Shown here: positions 9,420 to 50,987 of the stretch, piece after piece | How positions within the stretch are numbered: the stretch's first letter is position 1 | How the letters are laid out: each line of letters begins with the position of its first letter | Source: Candidatus Bathyarchaeia archaeon | Lineage (GTDB): Archaea; Thermoproteota; Bathyarchaeia; Bathyarchaeales; Bathycorpusculaceae | NCBI GenBank assembly: GCA_050015395.1 | Contig: JBEKBM010000001.1 | Coordinates: 96,001-160,000, forward strand | Direction: 5' to 3' | Length of the DNA: 64,000 bases | Notes under the pieces: model-generated | Seen by the model: only the letters and a program-made list of their open reading frames with translations | What the model was told of the DNA's origin: nothing | Database searches by the model: none | Made by a program: the position numbers and the translations under genes

Positions 9420-9421
9420 TC

Positions 9422-20188: not shown

Positions 20189-22987
20189 TTATGGTTTTTT
20201 CCTGAGCATCAATAGAGCTAGTACAATAGCTACTACGATGATTACAACGAATAAGCCGGCGATTGCGGGAACAAAGTACATGTTAGCGACAGATGTCGGA
20301 GTAGCTGTTGGTGCGGTAGTAGCTGCAGGTGCCGGGTTAACTACGAAGTTGGATTCTGAGTATGATGGCCAGTAAGCGTTAGTTCCGTGGAATGTAGCGA
20401 TGACCATGTACGTTCCTGGTACATTTACAGTAGCAGTGTTATAATCGAAGCTGTAGTGGCCGCTCGCATCGCTTGTGACAGTGCCGAGGTCATGGTAGTT
20501 GCCGTTAGGGTCAATAATGGTGATGTCAACTGGTACGCCAGTAGTGTTTGACGGAATAGGATTCTGCATATACACGTATTCCATGTATGGAGTCATGCTT
20601 GCGTCAGAAACAGCTGCAACACCGTTTGGAAAGCGCGCCGCTATTGAAGACTGCGTAGTGCCAGCAGAAATGTCCAGTTCTGAGCCTTGTATCATTAAGC
20701 TTTGTCCCAAGGTGACACCTGATAATGGTGTTTCTACTGTTGTGGCTGTTGGTCCCATGCCGAAGGAGTAGATTTGGTTGTCGTAACCGTTTTCAGCTAT
20801 AAGGTAGCCGTCTGCCAGTGCGGTGCCACCAAGCATTCCAGCTGCATCCCAGAAGGTGATGTTCCAGATTGGTGCTCCGTTTGTTGCGTTCATGTCGCCT
20901 AGCATGAATCCGGCTTCAAGGTTTGGTCCTGGGCTGTGTTCCATTCCGTACCAGTACGCATTGCCTGATGCGAAAGCTCCGATGGTTGTGGGGAGGTTGT
21001 CCCAGTAGCCAGTATAGCCCATAGAAGGCGCTTTGTAGCTCCACAATAGCGCTCCAGTCGTAGTGTTGTAGGCGTATACGGTTCCGCCTTCGCCAATTGA
21101 GTCGCTGCTGTATAGCACGCCGTTATAGATGTTTGCTGAGGCGCCGTACATGTGGTTACTAACTTCAGATGCTGCTGATGTCCAGAGTAGTGCTCCTGTG
21201 GTTGCGCTATAGCCCATCCAAAGTGTTGTTTCTTTCTGGAATAATGTAAATACGCCGTTGCCTAGGGCTCCACCTTCGAGGGTTATGTTACCTGTTGGCC
21301 ATGGGTATGCTTGAGACCACACCACTTGGCCCATGGTAGCGGGGTTGGTGCTGATGGCAAATTGTGTGTAGCTAGCGGGTGTAGGATAACTTGTTTCACC
21401 GAGTATCGCTGCGGCTGTGCTGTATATGGCGAGTTGGTCTGCCTTGTCAAGGTATAAAAGTGATGCTGCAGATCCAGGCCCAAACATAGTCATAACAGTG
21501 GCAGTTGCAGCTGCAGGTAGAGTACCAGTGATATTATAAACAGTTGTGCCGACTGATGCGTCTACTTGTCCACCCAGTGGAGGTCTCCACATCCAGTAAC
21601 CGTTGGCAGCTACTGTTACGCTGTTTGAAGGATACGTGTCTTGGAGTGTTTTGGTGCTGTTCCATACGCTGAAGGTTTTGGCGAGGAGGTTGGCGGTGTA
21701 GATTATGAAACTACCGCTTGGGTCAGTAATCAGGCTTGAGGCCCCGAACATTGCTGAAGAGGCTGGCACATTCCAGAGATTGCATATCCAATTGCCGGTG
21801 AATGCGTCAAACATTGACCAGACGCTCGATCCGTTAGCGGCTGTCCAAATGCTCCAGAGATAGTCGATAGTACCGTGTTGATTGGGTGATTCGTAGTCAA
21901 GTTCCTGCCCCATGCTAAGTTGCGGATAACTCTGTCCGGCGAAGCCAAATCCTAATTGGAATGGACCTGTACTGTTTTGATACCAGACTTGTTGTCCAGT
22001 TTGTAAATTGACGTCAACGAAGCCGTACTCTGGTGGAGTAAGAATGTTATAGTAGAGTTGCCCACCCATGATTATTGGAGGCGCGAATTTTCCCTCATAT
22101 GAAAGACCTGTGTAGTAGTTGTCACCACCAGTAGCAATAGCACCTGTGTTACCTGCAACGCCTCCGAAGGTTATGGGTTTAGTCCATGCGATATGGGCGG
22201 TTGTTGGCGATTGTGTGTAGTCATTGAAGTTTGAGCCTATCTGGTTGATAGCTAGCCAGTCGCCTGTGATATAATCCCAGCTCGTGTGTCCACTTTGACT
22301 GACTGGATTACTCCAGTATTGAGTTGGTAACGGATAAGCGGGTGCGGATGGAATAGCCGTCGATTGCACGTTGACTGTAACTGCGCTGGATGTGTCAGGC
22401 TCGTAATAGTTGCCTATGCTACTGTAGCCTGTTACAAAAACGGACTCCCAAAAAGCCAATACCACAGAAGCCGGTGTGCCTGGGGGCATTCCTGCAGCGG
22501 CAGGGCCATATGCGGCATATTGCTGGGCTTCGGCGAGTTGTGCTGGGTTCAGATTATTGCCTGCGAGAAGTTGTCCAGGATAGACAAATTTGAATGTATA
22601 ATTACCTGTTGTTGCTGGAATGACGGTTTTGAAAATCGTGCCAACGGGGTCTGACGTGTAGGGTCCCAATGTTACTGTGGTGCCGTCTGGCTTCGTTTCG
22701 ATTATAGTTAGATTATACCATCGGTCACCGTATTCTCCGGTCGCGGTTGGTGGATAGTTGCTCATCCAAGCAAAGAGGCTGATTGTTTGACCGACGCCAG
22801 CGGGACTTGGGAAAGCATTAATGTAGGCATGTGATGGAATATCAACTTTGCCTGCAGCTGCTTGTGCGCCAACGAGTGGTACTAGAACTGCGAAAGAACT
22901 AGCAGCTAATATCAAAATTAAAGTAATTGCGCAAATTAATTTGTTTCCGCGGATTGTCAGTTTATTCATAGTGAAAGATTCAGACAT
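20189..22987 (-). CDS. Large secreted, C-terminally anchored protein with PQQ-like beta-propeller repeats
   Basis: Signal peptide; repeated 'AYN.TTGALLW'-type motifs; Ig-like C-terminal domain; Thr/Pro linker; TM helix followed by RKKP; many N-x-S/T sequons. Confidence 0.8.
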   Translation of the reverse strand: MSESFTMNKLTIRGNKLICAITLILILAASSFAVLVPLVGAQAAAGKVDIPSHAYINAFPSPAGVGQTISLFAWMSNYPPTATGEYGDRWYNLTIIETKPDGTTVTLGPYTSDPVGTIFKTVIPATTGNYTFKFVYPGQLLAGNNLNPAQLAEAQQYAAYGPAAAGMPPGTPASVVLAFWESVFVTGYSSIGNYYEPDTSSAVTVNVQSTAIPSAPAYPLPTQYWSNPVSQSGHTSWDYITGDWLAINQIGSNFNDYTQSPTTAHIAWTKPITFGGVAGNTGAIATGGDNYYTGLSYEGKFAPPIIMGGQLYYNILTPPEYGFVDVNLQTGQQVWYQNSTGPFQLGFGFAGQSYPQLSMGQELDYESPNQHGTIDYLWSIWTAANGSSVWSMFDAFTGNWICNLWNVPASSAMFGASSLITDPSGSFIIYTANLLAKTFSVWNSTKTLQDTYPSNSVTVAANGYWMWRPPLGGQVDASVGTTVYNITGTLPAAATATVMTMFGPGSAASLLYLDKADQLAIYSTAAAILGETSYPTPASYTQFAISTNPATMGQVVWSQAYPWPTGNITLEGGALGNGVFTLFQKETTLWMGYSATTGALLWTSAASEVSNHMYGASANIYNGVLYSSDSIGEGGTVYAYNTTTGALLWSYKAPSMGYTGYWDNLPTTIGAFASGNAYWYGMEHSPGPNLEAGFMLGDMNATNGAPIWNITFWDAAGMLGGTALADGYLIAENGYDNQIYSFGMGPTATTVETPLSGVTLGQSLMIQGSELDISAGTTQSSIAARFPNGVAAVSDASMTPYMEYVYMQNPIPSNTTGVPVDITIIDPNGNYHDLGTVTSDASGHYSFDYNTATVNVPGTYMVIATFHGTNAYWPSYSESNFVVNPAPAATTAPTATPTSVANMYFVPAIAGLFVVIIVVAIVLALLMLRKKP

Positions 22988-30499: not shown

Positions 30500-32812
30500 T
30501 CAAGTTTGCGTTTGATTGTAATTGCTTAAGATTTTGAAGATGTCGTACCTATCGTTTGAATAAATTAGTTCTAAAAATGAGCAGCTGGCCATATTACTAT
30601 TAAGTTGGTTTTTGTCATAAACGATGAATTCTATGTTATTTTCTGCGATGTAGTCCTTAAAGTCTAAGGTGGATACTGTAAATTGGCCGGGTTTGAAATT
30701 GAAGAGGTTTTCCAGTTCGTTTGGCTGCAATGTTGGAAAACTGTTTTTTGAAAGGGTGAGAACTTGATACTGCCGTGTAACTGTCTGGTTGATGTTGAGT
30801 TCGTTGAATTGGTATTGGAATCTCACAGCATCTATTTGTCTACTTGCCAAGGCACCGATGTTTCCCCAATTGGGCAAATCAGTAAAGTTAAAAGCGAAAG
30901 CAATCTGGTCTTTGTCATCATAGAGGCCTATGTAGTTATCTTTTAAGTCTAAGTTTGAAAAATTAACAACTGCCCATTGTGTTCCATCAGTAGTTTTTGA
31001 AGGCACATCCCATGGGTTAACCCAGTTCATAAGTTGAGGTATCTGCGCTTCATCAAAGTTAAATTGAAGGTCAAAATAAGTGCTTAAGTATAATGTTACA
31101 TTAGAAATATCGTTATTTAAGGGAGTGACAGCCCAAGAGACATTAATTGGGTAACTATCATTCTGAACAAGCATCGTATCCGTTAATTCCACATAGTCAT
31201 TGGAGTACAGGAACTCTACCTTTGCGGGGTAACTTTGTTCATCAAAAGATACCTCCCTGCTTAAGTCAGAGAGAGCAAAATTGTAATTTGTGCCATTTTG
31301 GGTGAATGATATGAAATCTCCAGCTGTAGAAGAGTAGGAAACTCGATACCAGACCTGATTTATGGGTACGTAATTTTCGTCGGTAATATCACCGTTCGCC
31401 TCGTAAGCCTTCACCAAAGTTTGTGAACCCTGAATTTCGTAAGACAGACTCAAAACGGACTGGGCAATTTCATTTGTTCCCTCGGCAGCGTTGGTTTGCG
31501 CAATTACGGTTTTGCCAGAAAAGATTGAAAACCAAAAGCCGGGAATTTGGGTAACAACTACAGTTGCGTCACCAGGATAGTTTTGATTAAGCCAAACTCC
31601 AGCATCATACGCTTTTATGTCAGATGTCGAGTAGAAAACGCTGGCTTCCATTATTTTCCCGTACACAGTGTCTGAACGAAAAACAATTAGCAGACACATT
31701 AATACAATTAAAGAGACAGTAGCTATCTTTAACCAATTTTTGCGCAATCCTTGTTTGTTTTTGGCGTAGTAGGCTGAGAACTTTTCCACTATAAAGACAA
31801 CGGAAACAGCCGCGAAAATTGCCATCGGGGGCGTCAAATAGTAAATGAACCATTGAAAAGGCATGTACAAACCAAAAAGGTAAGACTCAGCGAAAAAAAG
31901 AGGAACAAAGAAACTAAGAAGCAATATCAAGTAAAAAAGCGGCTTCTTATTTACCCTCAACAACAGGTAATATGCAATGAAAATGCCACTTAAAGCCAAG
32001 AAAAATATGAACCCGAAATTAACCATGAAAGAACTGAAACTTGCAAATGGAATCTCGTAAGCATAACTTGTTTGCGCAAAAAACACGACATTAATAAGAA
32101 TGCCAAAGTAACCAATCATCACCGGGAGGTAATAGAGCAAAAACGCTATTCCTCCTCCTAAAATTAATGCAGTTAATACTTTAAGGTATTTGCCTCTAGA
32201 CTTTATAAGCATAAAAAGCATTATTGGCGGCAATATCATGACCGCGAGAAATGCAGCTAGTTGATGAGATAAAACAAGACCAAACCCCACAAAGAAAGTG
32301 ACCAGAAGGTATCCGGGTTTCTCTACTGCCAAAGGCAAATAAAGAAGTACCAAAAAAATAAACACTATGCCAAGCACGGTGGTATAGCCGCCCCATGCAT
32401 TAAGTTCATACATAGGAAAGCACATTGACAACAAAACAGCGGCTACTGCCCCGATTTTTTTGTTAAAAAATTTGCTGCCGATCAAATAAACAGAGAGGAA
32501 AAGGAGCCAATCAACTATTACAGCTAGAGCTTTCACTAAAAAGATCAGTTGCCCAATATTACTTGCACCACTAAGAGAAATAAACATCGCAAGCAAAATG
32601 TCGAAGAGCGGAGGCATCCAGCTTAAGCCGCTTAAAGAGATTTTTCCCGTTTGCAGGAAGATTTGGGCTTTTTCCAGATGGACAGAAGGGTCGTTTCCCA
32701 AGACTACGCCGTTCATTGATATGAGGGTATAGAAAATAGCGAAAATTAACACTGAGAAAACAATGATAAAGGTGATTTCAAGTTCTCTCTCTCTTATCAA
32801 TTTACCCATCAA
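30500..32812 (-). CDS. Multi-pass membrane protein, GT-C-fold glycosyltransferase-like, with a large extracellular domain
   Basis: GNDPSVH after TM1, WMPPLF, WGGY, about 12 TM segments and a C-terminal domain rich in sequons. Confidence 0.7.
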   Translation of the reverse strand: MMGKLIRERELEITFIIVFSVLIFAIFYTLISMNGVVLGNDPSVHLEKAQIFLQTGKISLSGLSWMPPLFDILLAMFISLSGASNIGQLIFLVKALAVIVDWLLFLSVYLIGSKFFNKKIGAVAAVLLSMCFPMYELNAWGGYTTVLGIVFIFLVLLYLPLAVEKPGYLLVTFFVGFGLVLSHQLAAFLAVMILPPIMLFMLIKSRGKYLKVLTALILGGGIAFLLYYLPVMIGYFGILINVVFFAQTSYAYEIPFASFSSFMVNFGFIFFLALSGIFIAYYLLLRVNKKPLFYLILLLSFFVPLFFAESYLFGLYMPFQWFIYYLTPPMAIFAAVSVVFIVEKFSAYYAKNKQGLRKNWLKIATVSLIVLMCLLIVFRSDTVYGKIMEASVFYSTSDIKAYDAGVWLNQNYPGDATVVVTQIPGFWFSIFSGKTVIAQTNAAEGTNEIAQSVLSLSYEIQGSQTLVKAYEANGDITDENYVPINQVWYRVSYSSTAGDFISFTQNGTNYNFALSDLSREVSFDEQSYPAKVEFLYSNDYVELTDTMLVQNDSYPINVSWAVTPLNNDISNVTLYLSTYFDLQFNFDEAQIPQLMNWVNPWDVPSKTTDGTQWAVVNFSNLDLKDNYIGLYDDKDQIAFAFNFTDLPNWGNIGALASRQIDAVRFQYQFNELNINQTVTRQYQVLTLSKNSFPTLQPNELENLFNFKPGQFTVSTLDFKDYIAENNIEFIVYDKNQLNSNMASCSFLELIYSNDRYDIFKILSNYNQTQT

Positions 32813-32837: not shown

Positions 32838-35132
32838 TTAGCCATTAGCTTTAACCTTAAAGATGGCAACTTCATTGTTAATAAATACAAGGTTAAATGC
32901 GGGATCGTCAGCAAATTTGGGGTTTAATTCAAAATCGCGATTTGCAATGTAGGAAATTGAATATTCTTGTATAGCTGCTTGGTAATCGAACGTGGTCATA
33001 GGCAAAGCGACAGTTGGTTTTTGGGCGGTTTGAACATTATCGGTTAACGTTTGGTTGAGGCTTGCTTGGTTTTGTATTTCAGTTTCGGAAACTGGGTAGA
33101 TTCCAACTAAAATTTGAATTTCTGCCGTAGTTTTGCCTTGTAAATTGTAGGATAATTCTGTAATGCATGGATTTTCTGAATTAAATGAGTAAATTTCTGG
33201 CTGATTTTCAACAAAAATTAATTGGCCACACTCCTTCATGCCAACGTCTAACATTGCAACCGTATTTTCACTTGGTTGTAGAAATTCGCCTTGGGAGTTT
33301 AAAATGAAATTAATCCAATCCAAGGAATCATTCTGATTGTTACTCTGGATTGCTATGGTCATATTTGCGAAGGTGACTCCTTTTGAGACGGTTAAAATTT
33401 CTGAGTAATTGAAGTCGCTGTTTCCTTTGTTAACGATAATTGATGGATTATTAGTTTGCGCGCCGACAAGTTGCATGTTAGTTACAGGTATCTGTGTTAT
33501 GTCAGTGGATTGAACAGATTCACCATTCTGAGAAAGCAGAGTAATCTCGCTATCATTAAATTGAAAGAACGCGTAGGGGAAAGGGGTCCAGTTAAGGTCA
33601 GCTAAAAACTCGGGATTATGTCTACCAATGTATCCGCCGTCTTCCCTAACCTGAATGTAACCATTATCAATAATGTAATCCGTGTCAAGTAGATTAGCAG
33701 CAACTGTGGCTACTGGCAACTCTTGGTCGACCGTTAAATATTGTGGGGAAACCGCGCTTAAAGTTGGCCGCTGAGCAAAGCCGCCAAGCCACCACCCGTA
33801 AAGAGCATCGGAAACAAACACTGAGCCAACTGTCGTGTTTTGCTTAGCCCACTCTACTGCTTGGTAGCCAGGATTATTCATAACTTGGTAGAAACTTTGA
33901 ATCGTGACGCCTTCCCAAGGAGTCAGAAAAAGTGGAAAGCCTAAGAGTAAGATAAGCAAAAAGCCCAATAAAAAGGTAGAATAAACTGTTTTATGGGTTA
34001 TCCGAGTTAAGATTCTCGATCTTAGCTTGTTTACGGTCTTCTTTGTTTTCTGCATTTGGCTAGTTAAAGCACGGTAGGTATCTATTACATGCGCAAAGTA
34101 TCCTGAGGCGTGATCAATCATCACAGCGAAGAGTATTATGACTGGTAAAACTAAGAAGTATAGAAACCGATTATAATCCACATAAAGCCCAAACATGAAG
34201 CCCTGTGTTAACACTAAAGGAACTAAAAGCCACATGATAAGAAGAAACACTGGAAGCGACAAAAATCGTCCTTTGTATTTTTTCGATAACAAAAAATACG
34301 GCAAAAGACAAGCAAAAAGCGCTAACACTATATCAAGAGGAACCACTCGCGTTGCAAGCAATGCTTGGTTAATTTCGGTAACTTCGGTAAATGATGAGTT
34401 AGCACTTAAATATGCGGGCACTGCATTTGCTAGAAAAGGCGAAACAAGGATGGCTCCGCCAAATAGTGGTAGCAACCAATAGAGGACATTTTTTCTTGAT
34501 GTTCCGAACGTTTTAGGTGAGATCATTACACATAGCACAGTGCCCACTGTTATGCTAACGAAAACGGCGGCGCTTAAAGAGTGAGTTAAAAATATTGAGC
34601 CCACTAAAATAGAGGTTGATAAGAGAAAAGGCGTTAGCGAAAACCTGTCTCTTTGAAGAAACAGGTAGAAAGTTAAAGGAATCAGAAGTAATGTGATTAC
34701 GTTGGGGTAGCCTCCCCACATGAGCATTTCTATATCATAACTTGAGATTGCCACTAAAAACGCAACGATTAAAGCGGCTGATTCACTCCATACAGTTCGA
34801 GTTATCAAGTAAGCGCACAAAACAATAAGTGAAGAGAATAAAGCCACAATAATAGTCTGCGCCAGATAATCGGGCATTCCAGTCATAATTATTATTCCTG
34901 CTGCGAAAATGTGGTATCCTGGAAAAGTCAAGGACAAGCCTCCACCCATCTGGTAGAAATCCGATAGGAAATTTGTGTTGCCTGACTGTGTAATTGAGTT
35001 GATGATGCTGGCGTGTAAGCCGATATCAGCGCCTGGCGGGAATGTTTGCCAAAGCATTAGAATTATACGGTAAATAAACGAGAAAGCGAAAATCAGCAAT
35101 AGCAAGACATACTTTTTGGTTGCTTTGAACAT
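32838..35132 (-). CDS. Paralogous GT-C-like membrane protein
   Basis: PPGADIGLH, FPGYH, WGGYPN and RFLYF. Same architecture as the neighbouring gene. Confidence 0.7.
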   Translation of the reverse strand: MFKATKKYVLLLLIFAFSFIYRIILMLWQTFPPGADIGLHASIINSITQSGNTNFLSDFYQMGGGLSLTFPGYHIFAAGIIIMTGMPDYLAQTIIVALFSSLIVLCAYLITRTVWSESAALIVAFLVAISSYDIEMLMWGGYPNVITLLLIPLTFYLFLQRDRFSLTPFLLSTSILVGSIFLTHSLSAAVFVSITVGTVLCVMISPKTFGTSRKNVLYWLLPLFGGAILVSPFLANAVPAYLSANSSFTEVTEINQALLATRVVPLDIVLALFACLLPYFLLSKKYKGRFLSLPVFLLIMWLLVPLVLTQGFMFGLYVDYNRFLYFLVLPVIILFAVMIDHASGYFAHVIDTYRALTSQMQKTKKTVNKLRSRILTRITHKTVYSTFLLGFLLILLLGFPLFLTPWEGVTIQSFYQVMNNPGYQAVEWAKQNTTVGSVFVSDALYGWWLGGFAQRPTLSAVSPQYLTVDQELPVATVAANLLDTDYIIDNGYIQVREDGGYIGRHNPEFLADLNWTPFPYAFFQFNDSEITLLSQNGESVQSTDITQIPVTNMQLVGAQTNNPSIIVNKGNSDFNYSEILTVSKGVTFANMTIAIQSNNQNDSLDWINFILNSQGEFLQPSENTVAMLDVGMKECGQLIFVENQPEIYSFNSENPCITELSYNLQGKTTAEIQILVGIYPVSETEIQNQASLNQTLTDNVQTAQKPTVALPMTTFDYQAAIQEYSISYIANRDFELNPKFADDPAFNLVFINNEVAIFKVKANG

Positions 35133-35249: not shown

Positions 35250-35678
35250 ATGTCATGGCTTAAATCTATGATGGAAAAAGAGCCTCCAGAACCAGAGAAT
35301 CCATTGGGGATAATCGTAATAGGCAACATTGAACCAGATATGCATGACACCGCAAAAGAAGCAGTTAGAAGGTCACTAAAACGCGCAGGATTCAAAACAA
35401 TAGACGTTGGAAAAAGCGTAGCACCGCAAGTTTTCGTTGATAAAGCAAGAGAAAACAACGCGGACATAATTGCAATTTCAGTAAACACGGTACCTGCAAA
35501 AAATAATCTGGCAAAACTAGATGAAGCATTGAAGGCAGCCGGATTAAAAGGCAAAATCGGAATAATCATGGGCGGCGCTGCAGTCAAAAAAGAAGATGCT
35601 GACGCATTAGGCGCGCTGTTTGGTAAGAACAAGGAAGAGGCCCCCGAGTTAGCAAAGAAAGCTATGGGCAAGAAATAA
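35250..35678 (+). CDS. Stand-alone cobalamin-binding (corrinoid) protein lacking the cap domain
   Basis: DMHDTAK (DxHxxG variant), IDVGKSV, ADIIAIS and IIMGGA. Confidence 0.85.
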   Translation: MSWLKSMMEKEPPEPENPLGIIVIGNIEPDMHDTAKEAVRRSLKRAGFKTIDVGKSVAPQVFVDKARENNADIIAISVNTVPAKNNLAKLDEALKAAGLKGKIGIIMGGAAVKKEDADALGALFGKNKEEAPELAKKAMGKK

Positions 35679-35697: not shown

Positions 35698-36609
35698 ATG
35701 TCCTTTAAATTCAACACGAAACAAAATATCTACACTATAGGAAGAGCGAAAGTAGGCGGTCAGCCAGGGGAACTACCAACTTTTCTGATTGGTTCTATCT
35801 TTTGGCTAGGCCAGAAAATGGTTCAAGACGCAAACAAAGGCATTTTTGATGCGCAAGAGGCAGAAAAAATAATTAATACAATGCAAACTCAAAGTGACAT
35901 TACTGGTGTACAATTCGCTTTTGACATTGTTGGGACAACTGAGCTAGCTTTTGAGAAGTACATTGACTTCGTATCGAAGCACAGTGATGCACCACTGATG
36001 CTCGATGCTATGAGCCCTAAGACACGTATGGCAGCAGCTGTAATGGCTAAAAAAATGGGTCTTTCAGACAGATGCATATACAACTCAGTGTACAAAGGCG
36101 TCACCGACGCTGAATTGGCGAATTTGAAGGAAAGCGGAGTCAAAATGTCCATAGTGCTTGCTGACAATCCAAAGGACAACAGCCTCGAAGGAAAGATGTC
36201 TGTTATAGAAGAAGCATTAGCATTAGCTGACAAAGGTGGAATCACAAAGCCTCTGATCGACACAGCAATTCCCGCATTCGCTCCAGACATGGGCACTGCT
36301 GTAAGGACCATACCCATAATGAAAGAGAAGTATGGTCACCCCGTAGGATTAGGCAGCGGAAACGTTGTCACAACCATGGGTTGGATTAAAGCGAACATTG
36401 CAAAAGAATTCAGAAAAGGATGCGTAACCGCCACCAACTCGATAATGCAAACAGCAGGCGCAAACTGGCTAATGATCGGACCCGCAGAACAAGCAGAATG
36501 GGTATTCCCAGCCGTTGCAGTAACTGACATATACATTGCATCAGCCGCAGCCGATCTTGAAACAAGACCACTAGAAGAAACCCACCCAATCTACAAGGCC
36601 TTCATGTAA
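35698..36609 (+). CDS. mtrH: MtrH/MtgA-like pterin:corrinoid methyltransferase
   Basis: Motifs VGGQPGELPT.LIGSIF, IYNS, PLIDT, KEKYGHPVGLGSGN and GANWLMIGP. Confidence 0.88.
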   Translation: MSFKFNTKQNIYTIGRAKVGGQPGELPTFLIGSIFWLGQKMVQDANKGIFDAQEAEKIINTMQTQSDITGVQFAFDIVGTTELAFEKYIDFVSKHSDAPLMLDAMSPKTRMAAAVMAKKMGLSDRCIYNSVYKGVTDAELANLKESGVKMSIVLADNPKDNSLEGKMSVIEEALALADKGGITKPLIDTAIPAFAPDMGTAVRTIPIMKEKYGHPVGLGSGNVVTTMGWIKANIAKEFRKGCVTATNSIMQTAGANWLMIGPAEQAEWVFPAVAVTDIYIASAAADLETRPLEETHPIYKAFM

Positions 36610-36740: not shown

Positions 36741-37049
36741 TTGCTTGCCGTTTTTCGTTACGTTTTCGGTTTTGTTTTTGTCGCATTTTTGCCGGGGTAC
36801 TGTTTAGTTAATATTTTGTTTATGAATAGAAACAAGCTTGATTTCGTAGAAGAATTAGTGTTGTCGGTTGCGTTAAGCTTTGGCTTAGATGGGCTTGTAG
36901 GCTTATTCTTAGGTCTCTCACCTATCGGGATTAACTTCACTTCAATAACAATTTCGCTTAGTGCAGTAGTGTTAATTTTTGCTGTAATTGTTTTTATAAG
37001 AAGGTTAAGAGAGCTTCACGTGCAAACTCATCAAGAAGTAAGCGCCTGA
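36741..37049 (+). CDS. DUF1616-like small membrane protein
   Basis: FLPGY...LF...LDFVEELVLSVALS pattern with three TM segments. Confidence 0.75.
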   Translation: MLAVFRYVFGFVFVAFLPGYCLVNILFMNRNKLDFVEELVLSVALSFGLDGLVGLFLGLSPIGINFTSITISLSAVVLIFAVIVFIRRLRELHVQTHQEVSA

Positions 37050-37326
37050 GGTTTTACGGCGGAGATTCCGAAAGTTAAAAGCAGAAGTTTTTTCAGTTTC
37101 TGTGTTCCTTTTCAAGCAACAGTTCCAAGAAAAAAAGTAAATGTTAACACGAAGTTACCACATACATCCAACCTGTTTCTGTAGCTCCCACAACACAATT
37201 GGAAACTTATTGTTTCAACATTTTTCCATCTCAAACCCTCTTAACCCCTGTTTTCTCTACCAACTAAGAAAACAATATATTGTATCCAAACGTAGAAATC
37301 CACCTGCAGAAGGGGAACACATCAAC

Positions 37327-38712
37327 ATGAAAATTACGCTAGTTAATCCTCCTTATCCGCCAAGCGTACACTCACATCCACCATTCATTCCGCTGGGCAT
37401 TGCATATTTAGGTGCAGTTGCAGAAAAAGCAGGCCATGATGTCACAGTCGTCGACTGCCAAGCAGAAAAACTCACCTACGATGCCTTCCGCAGACGAATC
37501 AGCCAAGTCCCATCAGACGTTATCGGCGTAACAGCCACAACCTTGCTTTATAAATCTGCAATGCAGTTAATCAACATAGCCAAAGAAGTTCACCCAAATG
37601 CAGTAACGATGCTTGGCGGTTCACACGGCACCTTCTGGGACGAAAATGCCCTCAACGAATACTCAAGCTTAGATATAGTCGTGCGCAGGGAAGGCGAAAC
37701 AACCTTCATAGAACTCCTCGACAAGCTCCGAACAGAAAACAGCTTCGACGAAGTTTTAGGCATTACTTTTCGCAACAAAGAAGGCAAAATCAGCCGGAAC
37801 CCAGACAGACCCTTCCTTGAAGACTTGGATGCTCTGCCTTTTCCAGCACACCATCTTCTGCCGCTTGACTCACTAAAACGAATGGGCAAAGTGCTTTTCC
37901 CCCTAATCACAAGCCGAGGCTGCGTTTACTGGTGTGACTTCTGCAGCACCGTCCGCATGTTCGGCAGAGGATACCGCATGCGCAGCCCCAAAAACGTCGT
38001 TGACGAAATGGAAATTATCCACAACAAGTATGGTGTAAACCAAGTCACATTTTATGACGACGCCTTCACAGTCAACCGAGAACGAGTCGTGAAAATCTGT
38101 GAAGAACTCCACCAGAGAAAACTGAAGTTAATCTGGGACTGCGGAACACGCGTAGACATGGTAGATCGCGAACTCCTCAAAACCATGCAGGACGCAGGTT
38201 GCATAGCCGTTTGGCTAGGAGTAGAATCAGGCTCCGAAGCCATCCTAACCGCCATGAATAAACGTATAAAGTTGGACCAGACACGCTTAGCATACAAAAC
38301 CGCACATGACATTGGGTTAATGACTATAGCCAACACCGTACTGGGTTTCCCAGGCGAAACAGAGCAGACCGCACGAAAAACCATAAACTTCGTCAAAGAA
38401 TTGAATCCTGATGATGTGGGCTTCTACGTCGCAACACCTTATCCCGGCACGCCAATGTACGATCAAGTCATCAAGAACGGATGGTTAAGAGTCACTGATT
38501 TCAACAAATACGACACCGCCACACCAACCTTTGAAACGCCATGGCTTAGCATCGAGAAACTAGCAGAAATCCGCTACAAAGCTTACCAAGAATTTTACTT
38601 ACGCCCAGGCTACGTTCTGAAGATGATGCGCAGAGGCGGAACCTACGGCATCTCAGCCGTGAAAACATCAGCTGCCTACGCATTAAGAGCCATGCACATC
38701 AAACTCTCGTAG
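37327..38712 (+). CDS. Cobalamin-dependent (class B) radical SAM enzyme
   Basis: Start reassigned to MKITLVNPP. Motifs PLGIAYL, GGSH, TSRGCVYWCDFC, YDDAF, GVESG and TPYPGT. Confidence 0.92.
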   Translation: MKITLVNPPYPPSVHSHPPFIPLGIAYLGAVAEKAGHDVTVVDCQAEKLTYDAFRRRISQVPSDVIGVTATTLLYKSAMQLINIAKEVHPNAVTMLGGSHGTFWDENALNEYSSLDIVVRREGETTFIELLDKLRTENSFDEVLGITFRNKEGKISRNPDRPFLEDLDALPFPAHHLLPLDSLKRMGKVLFPLITSRGCVYWCDFCSTVRMFGRGYRMRSPKNVVDEMEIIHNKYGVNQVTFYDDAFTVNRERVVKICEELHQRKLKLIWDCGTRVDMVDRELLKTMQDAGCIAVWLGVESGSEAILTAMNKRIKLDQTRLAYKTAHDIGLMTIANTVLGFPGETEQTARKTINFVKELNPDDVGFYVATPYPGTPMYDQVIKNGWLRVTDFNKYDTATPTFETPWLSIEKLAEIRYKAYQEFYLRPGYVLKMMRRGGTYGISAVKTSAAYALRAMHIKLS

Positions 38713-40402: not shown

Positions 40403-41308
40403 CTATGCTTTTAGCATCTTTTCCCATCGGTTGAAGAGTTCTAGGACTTCGTCGCCGCCGTGACCTTTGAGGAATTCTCGTGTTTCTTTGTCTGCGACCG
40501 CGTTCTTTTGGAACTCTTGTATCCATTGGGCTTTTTCTGCTAGGAAGATTATGCCGTCTATGCCTGTTCTTGCTGCGCGTGTGGCTACTGTCATTATTTG
40601 TTTAGTTGGTGCCACGGTGTCCCAAGTCTCGTTTGGACCTCGGACGTAGAAGTTTACGAACACTGGCTTCTTTAGGAAGCTTTTGTAGCCTCTTGCGATG
40701 GTTTCCCAGTACCATGGGGTTGGATAAGCCTTGCTGAACATGGGTATAACGAAGTAGTCAGCGTATTCTGCCATGGCTTCGAAGTCGTAGCCGAAGCGTG
40801 CTTTGCCAAGCAACGGGTCAGGCAGGCAATTAACGAATAAGGGCTTGTTTTTGACGACGTCTCGGACTTCTTTGAGGAATTCTGTTACGGTTTTTGCTCT
40901 CCAATCCACCCAGTTCAAGCCGCTTTGGCGCCACTGTTCAACGCATCGTGGGCAGACGCAGAAGTCGCGTTCAGCAAAGTGTTGGCTGCTGATGCTTATT
41001 CCCGGCGTGGTTTTGGCGCAGTCAGCGATTAGTTTAAGGTTGTACTCTCGAACCTCAGGGTTAGTCATGCATAGAACATCCCAGCGCAAATTGTACTTCT
41101 TGTTCGTGCGGAGAGCAGGACCATCCTTAGAGATTGATATCAATTCGGGACGCTTCGCTGCTAAGGCGTTATCGCCAAAGCATGCGATGTTAGTGTACAT
41201 TTTAGGGTTTGGTTTCCCCACGGTTCCTGATTCTGGTTTAATGCGGTAGAAGTTATAATCGACGCCTTCAACAGGTTCAGGTTGGTAAAGAAATACGCCG
41301 AATTTCAA
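40403..41308 (-). CDS. Uncharacterised glycoside-hydrolase-like (probable TIM-barrel) protein with a Cys cluster, paralog A
   Basis: CMTNP, FCVCPRC, DWRA and PDP...RFGYD. Aligns along its length with 42913-43797. Confidence 0.7.
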   Translation of the reverse strand: MKFGVFLYQPEPVEGVDYNFYRIKPESGTVGKPNPKMYTNIACFGDNALAAKRPELISISKDGPALRTNKKYNLRWDVLCMTNPEVREYNLKLIADCAKTTPGISISSQHFAERDFCVCPRCVEQWRQSGLNWVDWRAKTVTEFLKEVRDVVKNKPLFVNCLPDPLLGKARFGYDFEAMAEYADYFVIPMFSKAYPTPWYWETIARGYKSFLKKPVFVNFYVRGPNETWDTVAPTKQIMTVATRAARTGIDGIIFLAEKAQWIQEFQKNAVADKETREFLKGHGGDEVLELFNRWEKMLKA

Positions 41309-41452
41309 GTTTGATACACCATTCTAACATTTGTTTTATAACCGAATAAAAGTGCAAGTTATTTAAGTCTTTTCAGTTAGCCGCCATACCGGCAGGTTTT
41401 TTTAAAGATTGAGAAATCCTCAGCTACGCGGTCGCCCAAATCTGCTTCTGCG

Positions 41453-41485
41453 AAGTGTATATCAAAGTGTATATCAAACTGTATA
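41453..41485. repeat. 12-bp tandem repeat AAGTGTATATCA, about 2.7 copies
   Basis: Exact copies at 41453 and 41465, partial aactgtata at 41477. Confidence 0.7.
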
Positions 41486-41567
41486 AGCTTTCAGACCACG
41501 GTCAATAGGTAGTCTACACACGTATATGTCGACCACCGAGAAAACTTCAGAACTCCTGCATCTACTG

Positions 41568-42614
41568 TTAATCCTTAGAAAACGCTTCTTTCACAATTTT
41601 GATCAATGCATGCTTAAGAAAAGGCGGCAGATCAACCGAATCATAACCTGGCACTTTAGAGCAATCCAACTGGGAGCGGGCAAGGTTGCCAAAGCATTTA
41701 CTTAACTCAACTGCATCCCCAAGCTCGGCAGGGAACAGGTTCTTTTTAAAGTCATCATCTAGCTTCGCCGCGGCTAACAAATAAGCACTAGCAAGAGGCT
41801 TATTTTTTAAAATCTCAGCCAAAGCCTTCTCATCGACAGCTATACCTTTGACTTTGGATAGTTCAGCAGCTAGTTTCTCCAGCGGAAGATGCCTTTCTTT
41901 AAGTCTATCTAAAACGGTTCGGCATGCCCAAATTGGCTCTTGCTTGATTAGGGCTTCACTAACGGCGTTCCTTGTGCAATACCCGACCAACTTGCCGAGT
42001 TTTGATGCTGGACCGCCATAACTGATTGTTTTGCCTTGGCTTGTTGAGGCTATGGTTACGCTGTCAGTTATTGAGCCTGTAGCTGAGTCACCAGTGTACC
42101 TGCTTCGGACGTCAAAATCCCTCAGCGCTGCCGTCTTCGCTTCCGTGGCGGTAATTAGCGAAGCGACCATGCAGCTTTCCGTTGGGTTCCCGTCGATTAA
42201 GACGATAATGTTAATGGTGCCTACGATTTCTTGAACATCCATCTCTTCGCCTGAAGATTCACCGTGCGAGCAGCCTGCGGTAGCGGCAACGCTGACTGAA
42301 AAATCACCCGTTTTCTTGGATACTAAACTGTAGTTAGTAATTTTTGCAGCGGTGACCATGGCAAGATAATCTTTGGTTAATCCAAGCTTCGCCGCCGATG
42401 AAGTGATAAGTTCCAGCGGGTCAAGGTGCAAGGAACGGTCATTATACCCTTCCGGCACGCCTACATTGAGGACAGCTTTAACCTGTTTGCTCCCGCCATT
42501 ATAAATTGCTGAACTTATAGTCATTAAAGCTTTATCCGAAAATACGGCTAGCACATTGTCTTTGATGATTAATTTAGCGCTGTCTGCAAGGTTAAACTGT
42601 TCCATGCCAGCCAC
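41568..42614 (-). CDS. cbiZ: Adenosylcobinamide amidohydrolase CbiZ with a C-terminal extension
   Basis: Motifs SSAIYNGG, VTAA, ATAG, GTINIIV, TATEAK and ATGSITD. Confidence 0.88.
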   Translation of the reverse strand: MAGMEQFNLADSAKLIIKDNVLAVFSDKALMTISSAIYNGGSKQVKAVLNVGVPEGYNDRSLHLDPLELITSSAAKLGLTKDYLAMVTAAKITNYSLVSKKTGDFSVSVAATAGCSHGESSGEEMDVQEIVGTINIIVLIDGNPTESCMVASLITATEAKTAALRDFDVRSRYTGDSATGSITDSVTIASTSQGKTISYGGPASKLGKLVGYCTRNAVSEALIKQEPIWACRTVLDRLKERHLPLEKLAAELSKVKGIAVDEKALAEILKNKPLASAYLLAAAKLDDDFKKNLFPAELGDAVELSKCFGNLARSQLDCSKVPGYDSVDLPPFLKHALIKIVKEAFSKD

Positions 42615-42623
42615 CCCTCGTAA

Positions 42624-42863
42624 TTATTTTACTTTTGAGGGTTTACTAGGATTTATAGTAATGGCTTTTGATGGGCACAGGTTTACGCAGACGCCACATC
42701 GAGTGCATGACACAACATCAATCGCTTGTGGTTTTTTGTTTTTGCCCTCCTCTAAAACGCCCTGCGGACAAACGCCGACACAGATAAGCCCTGCGCAGGG
42801 AGTACATTTAGCGGTATCAATGATAATAAAGGATTTATGCTGCTTGCTCATGCGAATCAACAA
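42624..42863 (-). CDS. 2x[4Fe-4S] ferredoxin
   Basis: CTPCAGLICVGVCP and CTRCGVCVNLCP. The start may be the Met at 42851. Confidence 0.9.
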   Translation of the reverse strand: MLIRMSKQHKSFIIIDTAKCTPCAGLICVGVCPQGVLEEGKNKKPQAIDVVSCTRCGVCVNLCPSKAITINPSKPSKVK

Positions 42864-42912
42864 TTAAATAAGCGCCAAGAATATATTGTTTGCGCGCATC
42901 TGGTAAGAGAAT

Positions 42913-43797
42913 ATGAAAGTAGGCTTAGTCACCTATACCCCGGAAAAAGTCGAGGGCTTTGATCTTCACGTTTACTATTCAAAATGGGCAGATGGACAAG
43001 TTTTCCCAACAGCAAAAGGCATGCAGAATGACGTTACAGTGTTTTGTGATGCTAAAGCTATCAGGGAAGACCCAAGCATAGTTGCTGTCTCAAACAGTGG
43101 TCCAGCGCTACGCAAAAATAGGAGATCTAATTTGGCTTTTGATTTTGTTTGCCCAACAAACCCAGGGTACAGAACCAAAGTGTTAGACTACATTGAGAGC
43201 CTAAGCAAAGAAGACAGTATGGGCGTAACCTTGAACCTATACCACTTTCCTGACCAAGAATTCTGCGTATGCCCTAGATGCGTCGAGTTGTGGAAGCAGA
43301 GCGGCTTAAACTGGACTCAATGGAGAGCACAAACAACAACGAAATTTGTTCAAGAAGCCAGAGCACGAGTGAAGCAGACTTTTGCGGTTGAAATTTATCC
43401 TGACCCAGTGCTTGCTAAAGAAAGATTCGGCTTAGACTTAAATGCGATAGCTGAATGTGTTGATTATTTCCATGTGCCGCTTTCGTCGAGAGATTATTTG
43501 ACTATGTACTGGGTTGACATGCTGGCAAGAGATTTTGCCGCGTCATTGAAGAAGCCTGTTGTTTTAGAATTAAGCGCCGAAATGCCAACCGACGAGAAAA
43601 TGGATGCGCTACTGAAAACGGTGGCTTACGTTTCAAGGCACAAGCTAGATGCAGTGCTACTTTTAGTACATGACTCAGAGAATGCTAAACAGATCTGCAG
43701 GTTTGCTGTTCAAAACATTGACTTCCGAAATTGGCTTGAAAAATACAATTTTAATGAAATGAGCCGAATCGTCGATGATTGGGCTAAGATTTACTGA
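42913..43797 (+). CDS. Uncharacterised glycoside-hydrolase-like protein with a Cys cluster, paralog B
   Basis: CPTNP, FCVCPRC, QWRA and YPDP...RFGLD. Confidence 0.7.
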   Translation: MKVGLVTYTPEKVEGFDLHVYYSKWADGQVFPTAKGMQNDVTVFCDAKAIREDPSIVAVSNSGPALRKNRRSNLAFDFVCPTNPGYRTKVLDYIESLSKEDSMGVTLNLYHFPDQEFCVCPRCVELWKQSGLNWTQWRAQTTTKFVQEARARVKQTFAVEIYPDPVLAKERFGLDLNAIAECVDYFHVPLSSRDYLTMYWVDMLARDFAASLKKPVVLELSAEMPTDEKMDALLKTVAYVSRHKLDAVLLLVHDSENAKQICRFAVQNIDFRNWLEKYNFNEMSRIVDDWAKIY

Positions 43798-44536
43798 GCT
43801 TTCTACGGTATTCTCTGAGCCGTCGCATGTCAAGATCCCGGGTTAATATGGAATCTTCAGGTGCGTCGGAGACTTCGCCAAGCATGCCCCATGGAGCAAC
43901 AATTGCGCTTCTTCCACCCCTCATGCTTGAGCACACGTTTCCAACTTTAAGCACAAACAAGCCATTGTCAGTGGAAACCTTCTCGGTTAAGGGGTGGCCT
44001 TTAACGCTTGGATGAGTGCCCATCGATGCAACGGGGAGAGAAATTATTTCAGCCCCTAAATTAGCAGTTTGTTTTACAAGGTCAGCGTCAAACATGTCAG
44101 CACAAACCAAAAGCCCGATTTTACCAATTTCTGTGTTAACGACAACGGGTTTTGCGCCTTTGGCGACGCCAGCTTTAATTTCAGCTTGAATAGGGTTTAT
44201 CTTTTTGTATTTGGCTAAAAGAGAACCGTTTTTCCACAAAGTGCTCGTATTGTAATATTTTCCGCTGTCTTCCTCAAGCACTGAACCGCCCAACAGGTAA
44301 ATATTAGGTATTTCTTTAGAAATTTCAGCCAGAAAATCTAGCGTTTCTTTGCAGGTTTCCTTCGAAACACTTGATGCATCGGTGAAGTCTGCCATGCAGT
44401 TTGGAACTGTGAAATATTCTGGGAGAGCGATTAGGACTGGTTTTTGCTTAGCGGCTTTTTGGATTGCTATTTTGGCTGCTGTTATATTACCTTGTAGTGA
44501 GTCGCGTATTTTCATGTGGAGTAGGCTTGTTTTCAA
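43784..44536 (-). CDS. Carbon-nitrogen hydrolase (nitrilase/omega-amidase family)
   Basis: E-K-C triad in ALPEY, YKKIN and LVCAD. Also GRSAIVAPWG. Confidence 0.9.
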   Translation of the reverse strand: MKTSLLHMKIRDSLQGNITAAKIAIQKAAKQKPVLIALPEYFTVPNCMADFTDASSVSKETCKETLDFLAEISKEIPNIYLLGGSVLEEDSGKYYNTSTLWKNGSLLAKYKKINPIQAEIKAGVAKGAKPVVVNTEIGKIGLLVCADMFDADLVKQTANLGAEIISLPVASMGTHPSVKGHPLTEKVSTDNGLFVLKVGNVCSSMRGGRSAIVAPWGMLGEVSDAPEDSILTRDLDMRRLREYRRKLSKS

Positions 44537-44757
44537 GGGATGAATCCTCCGAATGATTGTGTTATTGAGTTTCAGCTTTTAAGACTTTTAAATGTGGTGT
44601 TTTGATGCAGGCAGATTTTTGTGTAGTTGAAAATCTCGTCTGTTCAGTATTTTGCTCAGTTTCCTCACAGATGTTTATTATTTTTTTGCTTTTGTTTGCA
44701 TATGGAGAAACCTTAAATAGTGGATGGATGAAAAACAATGTATTACGAGGGAAAGAA

Positions 44758-45738
44758 ATGGCGCTAGACCCATCAGAATACAACAAACTTTTACCAGAAG
44801 TTAGAACTTTAGTAAGCAAAGTTGTTAAGAAAAATATGGCTGACGGCTTCTTGTTTTCAGCTGGAACAGACACTCAAATAATTGCTTATGAAGCAGTGAA
44901 GTACAAACCTGACATTCCATGCCTCACTTTAGCTTTTAAGCATGGAAACCCAAAAGACGCCGAATACGTAAAGAAAATGGTTGCTCTCCTAAAGCTAAAG
45001 CAGGAAACGTACGAGTTCGGCAAAGAAGATGTACTCAAATATTACCCGAAAGTTGTGGAAGCACTCAAAAAATTTGACCCCATGGAAATCAGAAACAGCC
45101 TACCCGTCTACATTGGCTTAACCATCTTTAAAGCTAAGGGAATAAAAAGCGTATTCACAGGCGACTCATTAGACGAGCTTTTCGGGTACCCATGGCAATT
45201 CCACCTAACTGAAGCGGAATTCGCAAAGAAGCAGGAAGAAATGTGGGCAGAAATGGGCTTCTCATCGCTCCCCATGGCCGCGTCTCTTGGAGAGACCATA
45301 TGCGCACCTTACATGGATCCATTGTTCATGAATTGGGCAAAGAAACTACCCATCAAATTCAAGATAAACATGTACAACGGAGTAAAATACAGCAAATGGA
45401 TACTTCGCAAAGCCTACGAAGATGTAATACCCAAAGACGTCATTTGGAGAACAAAAGCACCGCTTGAACAGGGAACAGGAACAGAAACTCTCAGAACATA
45501 CTTCAACGACATGATTTCTGACAAGGATTTTGAAGCGAAAAAGAAGTCAATTAAAGAAAAAGACGACGTCGAAATCCCAGACAAAGAACAATTACTCTAC
45601 TACGAGCACTTCCGCAAGAAATTCGGCAAACCAAAAGACGTCTTTCCAGATAACGGTGGAATACAGTGTCCAAAATGCAAAAGCTACATTAAAACAAAAA
45701 TCCAGTTCTGCAAGGTTTGCGGAGCTTACCCAATCTAA
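44758..45738 (+). CDS. Asparagine-synthase C-terminal (ATP-pyrophosphatase) domain protein with a Zn ribbon and no glutaminase domain
   Basis: Start reassigned to MALDP. Motifs FSAGTDT, GDSLDELFGY, KWILRKAY and CPKC...CKVC. Confidence 0.8.
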   Translation: MALDPSEYNKLLPEVRTLVSKVVKKNMADGFLFSAGTDTQIIAYEAVKYKPDIPCLTLAFKHGNPKDAEYVKKMVALLKLKQETYEFGKEDVLKYYPKVVEALKKFDPMEIRNSLPVYIGLTIFKAKGIKSVFTGDSLDELFGYPWQFHLTEAEFAKKQEEMWAEMGFSSLPMAASLGETICAPYMDPLFMNWAKKLPIKFKINMYNGVKYSKWILRKAYEDVIPKDVIWRTKAPLEQGTGTETLRTYFNDMISDKDFEAKKKSIKEKDDVEIPDKEQLLYYEHFRKKFGKPKDVFPDNGGIQCPKCKSYIKTKIQFCKVCGAYPI

Positions 45739-50360: not shown

Positions 50361-50987
50361 ATGGCTACATCGCTGAAAAAGTTGATACAAGAAATCGCTG
50401 GAAAAAAAGCTTCAGGACCATCAACCACCTTCACCGTATTCCATATTTTCTACGCTTTAGAGCTTATGGCGCAGAAACCTCTTGGCAGAAACAAACTGGC
50501 TAAGAAACTCAATGTTGGTGACGGAGCAGTACGCACAATAATAAGCAGACTTAGAAATGCCGGTTTAATTGAAACGTCCAAAGAAGGCTGCAGTTTAACA
50601 AAAAAAGGCTTAGACGTTTGGGGGCAATTTGAACAAGTTTTTCCTAAACGGGTCGAAATTCCAAAATCAGAATTGAATGGATCCGAATTTAATTTTGCTT
50701 TTTTGGTGAAAAACAGCGGGCAAAAAGTGGGGTCGGGGATTGATCAGAGGGATGCATCCATCATTGCTGGTGCACGTAAAGCTTTAGTTATTGTTTTCAA
50801 AGATGGCCATTTGCGTATTGAATCAGTCAGTAACTCTATAGAGAAGGATTATCCGAAGGCAGCGACCCAAATTCTTAAGGAATTAACGCCTGAAGATAAT
50901 GATGTTATTATTGTCGCTGGTTCTGATTCAGCTTTGAGGGCTAAGCGTGGAGCCTTTGCAGCAAGCTGGTCACTGATTAGCGCTTAA
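50361..50987 (+). CDS. Archaeal wHTH protein (DUF4443-like)
   Basis: LGRNKLAKKLNVGDGAVRTII HTH and GIDQRDA motif. Confidence 0.75.
   Translation: MATSLKKLIQEIAGKKASGPSTTFTVFHIFYALELMAQKPLGRNKLAKKLNVGDGAVRTIISRLRNAGLIETSKEGCSLTKKGLDVWGQFEQVFPKRVEIPKSELNGSEFNFAFLVKNSGQKVGSGIDQRDASIIAGARKALVIVFKDGHLRIESVSNSIEKDYPKAATQILKELTPEDNDVIIVAGSDSALRAKRGAFAASWSLISA

Follow-up and report, generated by a model that had tools for sequence, protein, structure and literature searches.

The question raised by this locus is what two similar proteins of glycosidase-like build do on either side of a cobamide-salvage gene in an archaeon. The stretch considered comprises 64,000 nucleotides (positions 96,001 to 160,000, forward strand) of contig JBEKBM010000001.1 from a Candidatus Bathyarchaeia archaeon (assembly GCA_050015395.1), and is referred to below as the window. 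Within it, two paralogous genes, here called parA and parB, bracket a ferredoxin gene and cbiZ, and are followed by genes for a nitrilase-family enzyme and an AsnB-like ATP-dependent amidoligase. A first-pass annotation, made from the letters alone, had read this as a salvage cluster in which the paralogs, possibly as a heterodimer, take the cobamide nucleotide loop, or else some other cofactor, as their target and so serve the nearby B12 enzymes. The analysis presented here leads to a different answer, to which a probability of roughly 0.72 is assigned: parA and parB encode MtgB-family methyltransferase 1 components of a corrinoid-dependent O-demethylase, these being Cys4 barrels of glycoside-hydrolase-like origin that stand beside the genes for the supply of their cofactor.

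Probable identification of the paralogs as MtgB-family proteins

The layout as first described was borne out. All six open reading frames (ORFs) of the cluster were recovered from the ORF list where the first-pass annotation had placed them, with the nitrilase and ligase domains it had named (Table 1). parA and parB proved 34% identical over 299 residues in a pairwise alignment (E 3e-67), in which every motif originally listed for them (GPALRxN, CxTNP, FCVCPRCVExWxQSGLNW, PDP and LKKPV) is present, and parB starts 49 bp from the start of the ferredoxin gene, head to head, close to the ~50 bp first estimated. The genome of the window (98.9% complete) holds four paralogs in all, the further two lying amid unrelated genes on contigs C14 and C15 and being 45% and 43% identical, respectively, to parA.

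The closest described proteins belong to MtgB, reported by Yu et al. (2023, PMC10989822) as the Bathyarchaeia-specific methyltransferase 1 of an O-demethylase system. According to that description, MtgB has ~300 amino acids (~32 kDa) and occurs in two copies that are 44.85% similar, and its gene is clustered with mtgA (encoding methyltransferase 2, MT2), mtgC (the corrinoid protein) and a gene for a transmembrane protein. Recombinant MtgB_2 transferred the methyl group of guaiacol or vanillin to Co(I)-MtgC. MtgB was found in one order only, in 60 of 172 metagenome-assembled genomes (MAGs), and falls into three phylogenetic groups, the third of which is distant (PMC10989822).

A bridge between the window and the published systems is offered by locus L020 of genome G040, in which the genes run in the order B12-binding protein, MtrH, winged helix-turn-helix (wHTH)-membrane protein, parA1, parA2, CbiZ, ferredoxin, parB and nitrilase. 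The tandem copies parA1 and parA2 (L020:8187-9095 and 9319-10221) are 46% identical, and the B12-binding gene preceding MtrH encodes 142 amino acids here as well. The MtrH, parA2 and parB proteins of L020 are letter-identical to the records WGM89984, WGM89987 and WGM89990, and by consecutive numbering parA1 corresponds to WGM89986. Records WGM89983-84 together with WGM89986 are the putative O-demethylase cluster of the organism represented by genome G040 (PMC10477458), an organism placed in Bathy-8 and, within it, in a genus-level group that includes MAGs from lignin enrichments (PMC10477458). A family member is directly adjacent to genes for MtrH, a corrinoid protein and a membrane protein in L009 and L033, as in L020.

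The distribution of the family points the same way. A sample of 301 Bathyarchaeia genomes was searched, of which 51 gave a match at E ≤ 1e-8 and 46 were kept; those dropped (G309, G167, G238, G147 and G158) had partial matches to ORFs of 350–720 amino acids (E 1e-9 to 1e-19). Genomes hold either no match or between one and seven, with a match in 19 of the 24 genus relatives, a pattern in line with that published for Bathy-6, where some MAGs carry 2–5 MtgB homologs and others none (PMC11697101). Families f1 and f7, both of the window's order, are alone in having the multi-copy clade. In the tree, the f1 and f7 paralogs form one clade (support 99/99) split into parB and parA-like subclades, and three groupings can be made out, namely parB, parA with f7-parA2, and par3 and par4 with f7-parA1, which we infer to be the published MtgB groups 1–3. 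Public records name all of the homologs simply “hypothetical”. By length, number of copies, gene order and range, parA and parB are thus very probably MtgB-family proteins.

Several points weigh against this reading. The identity is drawn from the published description and not from the sequences of MtgB_1 or MtgB_2, and the equation of WGM89986 with parA1 depends on record numbering and not on sequence, the ORF called parA1 being without a letter-identical record. A distance of 4.7 kb separates parA from the MtrH gene in the window, with a B12-binding radical S-adenosylmethionine (SAM) gene and small ORFs between them, whereas the distance in its relatives is less than 1 kb. parB has no tested relative, and what group 3 does is a matter of doubt even to the authors of MtgB (PMC10989822), to which parB would belong. 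Finally, the tight embrace of cbiZ and ferredoxin by the paralogs across two families is left unexplained by O-demethylation alone.

Fold, putative metal site and active-site residues

In the family alignment of 33 sequences, which was also used to predict the structure of parA, residues C80, C117, C119, C122 and G173 are invariant (33/33). The predicted model of parA is a (β/α)8 barrel starting at residue 2, with a predicted local distance difference test (pLDDT) score of 96.6. By inspection, a signal peptide is absent in both parA and parB, their N-termini entering strand 1 of the barrel directly (residues 2–7 of the model), as the first reading had supposed. The top Foldseek matches of the model are the C-terminal domain of PgaB and Cwp19 (E 7e-11 to 2e-9); a structure search independent of Foldseek returned Cwp19 (Z 20.9), PgaB/BpsB (Z 20.5), a fucosidase of the glycoside hydrolase (GH) family 151 type (Z 19.9) and GH42 (Z 15–17). 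A sequence profile search of the PDB gave 4S1A, an uncharacterised DUF4015-like protein, at E 4e-6, the GH42 enzyme 3TTS at E 0.013 and 6TVK at E 0.039.

Profile family searches were less informative. Neither parA nor parB scores above the cut-off in Pfam or NCBIfam, and parB has no match there at all; parA reaches 24.7 bits against PF13200 (DUF4015), under the gathering cut-off of 27, which a btu-linked homolog (L022:9543-10337) exceeds with 34.1 bits. Matches in the ESM Atlas were only to Bathyarchaeota clusters labelled “hypothetical” and bacterial GHL10 clusters. Fused forms were seen in 19 distant proteins (19–25% identity, 645–950 amino acids), one of them with PF02449 (GH42); no informative fusion partner was found among the 19, and the one taxon-informative name is bacterial.

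In the PDB profile alignments, all four cysteines coincide with the Cys...CxCxxC cluster of the GH42-type enzymes, 3TTS included. As alignment and fold agree, the earlier idea of cytoplasmic, GH-like barrels with a GH42-like metal site is supported. The GH42 cluster holds a structural Zn ion (PMC8573354), and by analogy the Cys4 site of parA and parB probably does likewise. The two proteins are nevertheless not members of GH42. Canonical glycosidase residues, which the first-pass annotation had taken as the sign of a sugar-active enzyme, were not encountered at the acid/base position, where the GH42 “NE” aligns with F-P/A across the family; the strand-7 position, which in GH42 holds the nucleophile Glu, is N in parA and E in parB.

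An acidic set is found in most family members, the btu-linked, PduO-linked and haloarchaeal ones among them: strand 4 ends in an Asp (R-L-D), strand 6 is followed by Y-D, and strand 7 has a Glu (E-L-Y). In the four paralogs of this genome and in the f7 copies, the strand-4 Asp is replaced by S or N (C in f7 parB) and the strand-6 Y-D by F-S or S-S; of these copies, those of the parB lineage are the only ones with the strand-7 Glu. The pattern argues against a conserved glycosidase-type hydrolysis by parA and parB, and would fit altered chemistry in the clade that arose by duplication.

Behaviour of the module across relatives

Fourteen loci were surveyed (13 of the same genus, and G040 from another family of the order), together with seven more from other f1 genera and from f7. 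The block of parA, CbiZ and ferredoxin with parB is present in all fourteen, its four core genes recur in all seven of the others, and the ferredoxin gene, divergent from parB, is kept in 21/21. The nitrilase gene was found in 13 of the 14 loci, the single miss ending at a contig end, and the AsnB-like gene in 12, as was MtrH within the fetched locus.

Five genomes of the genus without any family member (G164, G128, G006, G017 and G018; 88–97% complete) give a clearer view of what belongs together. At the locus, parA, ferredoxin, parB and nitrilase are all missing in 5/5, while CbiZ is kept divergent from the AsnB-like gene in all five. A gene for an M48 peptidase is next in four (the fifth contig being of 3.1 kb), and MtrH lies upstream in three (the other two contigs being short). 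The joint absence marks out parA, ferredoxin, parB and nitrilase as one accessory module, with cbiZ and the AsnB-like gene as the stable core, and assigns the ferredoxin to the MtgB genes and not to CbiZ. The persistence of cbiZ without these four genes means that they are not needed for CbiZ.

Wider family and its genomic contexts

A library of 1.84 billion representatives yielded 167 relatives at E ≤ 1e-3, and a scan of species genomes seeded with four haloarchaeal sequences yielded 456, the 80 best of them belonging without exception to Halobacteria according to their record titles; one cluster of relatives stems from Bacillota MAGs. Beyond the f1/f7 clade with its several copies, the Bathyarchaeia gene occurs singly and within corrinoid clusters. 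Locus L022 (family f14) has cobY-like, cobS, cbiZ, DBI_PRT-like and cbiB genes divergent from btuF, the homolog, a radical-SAM gene, btuC and btuD, the last being followed by a DUF4443 regulator (13570-14223), a DUF71 gene and an AsnB-like gene. Locus L024 (f17) has the order btuD, btuC, homolog (9643-10545) and btuF; divergent from these run cobD, a Cys-rich zinc-finger-like gene, cobQ, cbiB, a cbiZ-PgpA-like gene and cobS. The homolog of L025 (f35; 9534-10406) stands head to head with a PduO-type adenosyltransferase gene (213 bits), a pairing also present in 67 of 80 metagenome loci; in each of the remaining 13, less than 200 bp lie upstream of the match. CbiZ occurs in 37 of the 46 genomes with the family and in 29 of the 255 without it, counts that are descriptive only, the genomes being related; all nine family genomes that lack CbiZ are of the PduO-linked lineage.

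The association of the homologs with corrinoid genes, as anticipated by the first-pass annotation, therefore holds for four contexts in Bathyarchaeia but is not universal: none of the 80 haloarchaeal loci has CbiZ, CbiB, CobS, CobY, BtuF, BtuC, CobD or CobQ within 10 kb, and PduO lies within 10 kb in one. Two other neighbours were noted in these haloarchaeal loci (L037-L116). The family member lies ~0.6 kb downstream of pyrB (65/80) and pyrI (67/80) on the same strand in many genera, for example in L077:7882-10864, and an archaeal-type SAM synthetase gene is found within 6 kb in 38 of the 80.

Corrinoid genes of the window's genome

The genome has a single CbiZ, the one between parA and parB. 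Its PF01955 match spans positions 5–191 of 191, and the protein aligns end to end with a canonical salvage-cluster CbiZ. Also encoded are two copies each of CbiB, CobS and CobY-like proteins, and CbiC; at 98.9% completeness, there is no recognisable BtuF, no BtuC above the cut-off and no recognisable PduO- or CobA-type adenosyltransferase. A supposed absence of an activating enzyme was rejected, a RACo/RamA-type enzyme (PF14574, 326 bits) being encoded on contig C24 next to a second MtrH gene.

Proposed function and alternative explanations

As MtgB-family proteins, parA and parB would be cytoplasmic (β/α)8 barrels descended from glycoside-hydrolase-like ancestors, with a stabilising Cys4 site that probably binds Zn. 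By extension from the published MtgB, parA would move methyl groups from methoxylated aromatics onto the Co(I) of the corrinoid protein whose gene lies upstream, and the MtrH-type enzyme, to judge from its published counterpart, would then hand the methyl group to tetrahydromethanopterin. parA would be the ordinary catalytic type, and parB a diverged, long-branch paralog. The position of cbiZ between the paralogs probably reflects the descent of the family from a gene of a corrinoid uptake and salvage cluster, together with the co-location of cofactor supply and use; with a btu/cob cluster gene as the ancestor, the continued presence of the duplicates on both sides of cbiZ would be accounted for. 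Ammonia for the AsnB-like ligase may come from the nitrilase-family enzyme, by a logic like that of NAD synthetase. If parA and parB are what their fit to MtgB suggests, they would be B12-using enzymes themselves and not helpers of the “nearby B12 enzymes”, as had been thought at first.

A broader proposal, tentative and on the whole doubtful, would derive the MtgB O-demethylases from a larger, undescribed family of GH-like barrels with a Zn-Cys4 site, whose members originally processed free corrinoids just after their uptake. One possible reaction would be methyl transfer from or to cobalt; imported methyl-corrinoids, for example, might be dealkylated to cob(I) for adenosylation by PduO and cleavage by CbiZ. 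Such an ancestry would explain both the single-copy members that lie between btuF and btuCD or head to head with pduO, and the duplicates of the window that embrace cbiZ with a dedicated ferredoxin.

It is rather unlikely that only parA carries out methyl transfer and that parB acts with the ferredoxin as an auxiliary, in corrinoid docking, in cofactor loading or in the reductive reactivation of Co(II)-MtgC. Such a division of labour would suit the divergent genes of parB and ferredoxin, which start 49 bp apart in the window, are retained as a pair in 21/21 loci and go missing together, as well as the separate long-branch clade formed by parB; moreover, according to two accounts, an activating enzyme was not found in Bathy-8 cultures (PMC10989822, PMC10477458). 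The RACo-type enzyme of the window's genome, however, weakens the case for parB and ferredoxin as the substitute for a missing activase, and parB has no sequence feature of an ATPase or a redox-cofactor protein beyond the Cys4 site, which in GH42 is a site of structural Zn (PMC8573354).

The hydrolyse-and-rebuild salvage pathway proposed initially, with parA and parB as hydrolases, or one heterodimeric hydrolase, opening the nucleotide loop of cobamides or another cofactor in concert with CbiZ, is clearly unlikely for these two proteins and possible for their single-copy relatives. It is to the latter that most of the favourable evidence applies, namely their place between btuF and btuC in cob/cbiZ clusters (L022 and L024) or beside PduO and the acidic residues that they retain where strands 4, 6 and 7 end; the GH-like fold, the greater frequency of CbiZ among genomes with the family (not a statistical test, for the reason given above) and the precedent of CbiR, a case in which cobamide remodelling has drawn on a TIM barrel of the hydrolytic kind (PMC7733943), can be added. 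In the four paralogs of this genome and in the f7 copies, by contrast, the strand-4 and strand-6 Asp residues are replaced, no family member has the GH42 acid/base, CbiZ persists without parA and parB in 5/5 relatives, and the closest described proteins are methyltransferases (PMC10989822). That parA and parB are ordinary sugar-active glycosidases with corrinoid neighbours by chance is scarcely credible, for the fold, the weak Pfam matches to the putative glycosyl-hydrolase families DUF4015, DUF4838 and GHL10 and the haloarchaeal relatives without cobamide neighbours (0/80) are outweighed by four different corrinoid contexts in Bathyarchaeia, the lack of a signal peptide and of the clan-A acid/base residue and, if the MtgB identification holds, a family member shown to be a methyltransferase (PMC10989822).

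Genes of the locus and their surroundings

The features of the cluster and of the putative mtg genes upstream are collected in Table 1.

Table 1. Position and character of the genes discussed (coordinates of the window).
Feature	Position	Strand	Details
B12-binding domain protein, MtgC-like corrinoid protein (putative)	35250-35678	+	142 aa; PF02310 55.3 bits
MtrH-family methyltransferase, MtgA-like MT2 (putative)	35698-36609	+	PF02007 258.3 bits
Small membrane protein ORF, candidate counterpart of the published mtg-cluster transmembrane protein	36741-37049	+	Hydrophobic stretch common with L020:7513-8082, by eye only
parA	40403-41308	-	301 aa; predicted GH-like TIM barrel with Cys4 site; very probably an MtgB-family member, parA-like clade
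CbiZ (adenosylcobinamide amidohydrolase family)	41568-42614	-	348 aa; PF01955 165.6 bits; C-terminal extension
Ferredoxin, 2x[4Fe-4S]	42624-42863	-	79 aa; Fer4 dicluster families; 9 bp upstream of cbiZ
parB	42913-43797	+	294 aa; divergent paralog in separate clade; probably published “group 3”
Nitrilase-superfamily C-N hydrolase	43784-44536	-	250 aa; CN_hydrolase PF00795 95 bits; convergent with parB, 14-bp overlap
AsnB-like ATP-dependent amidoligase	44602-45738	+	378 aa; Asn_synthase PF00733 103.8 bits; synthetase domain only; C-terminal Zn ribbon

CbiZ carries a C-terminal extension of 130 amino acids (residues ~219–348) that aligns with the PgpA-like region of an f17 protein (L024:15505-16662) and partly matches the model of the bifunctional CbiS (126.6 bits against a cut-off of 250); one possible reading of the extension is a CobZ-like phosphatase domain that has degenerated. 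No solved CbiZ structure was found by sequence search. A complex prediction for parA, parB and CbiZ, with CbiZ as the partner, scored 0.00 against a mark of 0.32, a value that says nothing on binding or on a heterodimer.

The AsnB-like gene has an alternative start, the ATG at 44728. The preceding part of the ORF (44602-44728) begins with TTG and encodes 42 hydrophobic, Cys-rich residues ahead of this in-frame ATG; the longer form is probably not real, as homology starts only past it. The protein is 34–37% identical to the AsnB-like protein of the f14 salvage cluster in L022, where a DUF71 gene (diphthamide-synthase-like, PF01902) and the AsnB-like gene close the btuFCD cluster (L022:15092-16666). 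This pair recalls the “DUF71-B12” subgroup predicted in 2012 (PMC3541065).

Among the other genes of the window, the B12-binding radical SAM protein between MtrH and parA (37141-38712, +) is matched by one or two such genes at this place in relatives; its true start is probably later than listed, as ~60 surplus residues precede the domain at the N-terminus of the ORF. Just upstream of the mtgC-mtgA pair, two neighbouring ORFs of 770 and 764 amino acids (30500-32812 and 32838-35132, both on the minus strand) gave no Pfam match at E ≤ 0.001. A 932-amino-acid protein (20189-22987, -) has matches to a PQQ-like β-propeller and to MG2; membrane-associated PQQ-domain proteins are candidate lignin-modifying proteins in Bathy-6 (PMC11697101). 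Downstream of the AsnB-like gene by 4.6 kb, a DUF4443/PH0730-like wHTH regulator is encoded (50361-50987, +), of the same family as the one next to btuD in L022 and a possible shared regulator of corrinoid genes. Elsewhere in the genome, the C14 paralog lies 2.3 kb from an ECF-type transporter module composed of a CbiQ-family T component and a fused double ABC ATPase, separated from it by NAD-binding and Rieske genes (region L005:3467-9569).

Rfam gave no match at the gathering score in the whole window. A sigma-70 and terminator scan found 12 promoter-like sites against 8.4 ± 2.8 expected, a result that is uninformative for an archaeon. The stretch was found in 24 sequencing runs from peat and wetland metagenomes, none of which is recorded as RNA.

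Significance and comparison with known systems

parA and parB are best filed as new members of the family described in 2023. Compared with the available account of that family (PMC10989822), what is added here are the fold and the Cys4 site, a range beyond Bathyarchaeia, and the embedding in clusters for B12 uptake, salvage and adenosylation. If the identification is true, the MtgB enzyme would be a glycoside-hydrolase-like barrel with a GH42-type metal site, would have relatives in Halobacteria, Bacillota and other Bathyarchaeia, and would have its nearest non-duplicated relatives built into operons for the uptake and salvage of vitamin B12, which would give a concrete evolutionary origin to an abundant lignin-demethylating enzyme. 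The single-copy relatives would then also point to an uncharacterised step of archaeal corrinoid salvage. For annotation, Bathyarchaeia proteins of ~300 amino acids labelled “hypothetical” or “GHL10-like” should not be counted as carbohydrate-active enzymes.

Set beside known proteins, the family resembles GH42 (3TTS and 1KWK) and GH151 (6TVK) in its (β/α)8 barrel (Z 15–20) and in the Cys...CxCxxC set after strands 3 and 4, with profile E-values of just 0.013–1.1. It differs from GH42 in having 300 instead of 650–690 amino acids, without the trimerisation or C-terminal domains, and F-P/A for “NE”. The DUF4015/GHL10 proteins (4S1A, Cwp19 5OQ2 and the C-terminal domain of PgaB) are the best matches in sequence and fold and share the D-x-x-x-F-P motif at strand 4 with most family members, but they have no Cys cluster and are secreted or cell-wall enzymes; a literature search found no link of DUF4015/GHL10 to cobalamin.

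Two further systems offer analogies of another kind. CbiR, the cobamide phosphodiesterase of Akkermansia (PMC7733943), is likewise a TIM barrel of a hydrolytic superfamily encoded beside genes for cobamide biosynthesis and transport, and, from what is available of its description, may serve as a functional analogy for the btu-linked relatives; it differs in its superfamily, AP endonuclease 2, which is absent from the listed Pfam, fold and profile matches of the family, an absence that concerns those lists only. The DUF71-B12 PP-loop proteins found with btuCDF (PMC3541065) are likewise a family, as yet unexplained, of ATP-dependent amide-forming proteins with ties to B12 salvage clusters. After btuD, L022 has both a DUF71 and an AsnB-like gene, whereas the window has the nitrilase-family gene instead of DUF71.

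The closest comparison is that with MtgB itself. As published, MtgB has “no homology” and occurs “only in Bathyarchaeia”, and the terms “TIM barrel” and “zinc” were not found in the accessible text (PMC10989822), whereas the family described here has a GH-like fold and relatives elsewhere; the linkage to cbiZ, ferredoxin and nitrilase is likewise a feature seen here and not mentioned for MtgB in that text. Against these differences stand the size of ~300 amino acids, paralogs that are 43–46% identical, an MtrH-type MT2, a small B12-binding protein and a membrane protein nearby, and the restriction to one order, with three clades and an all-or-none presence among close genomes.

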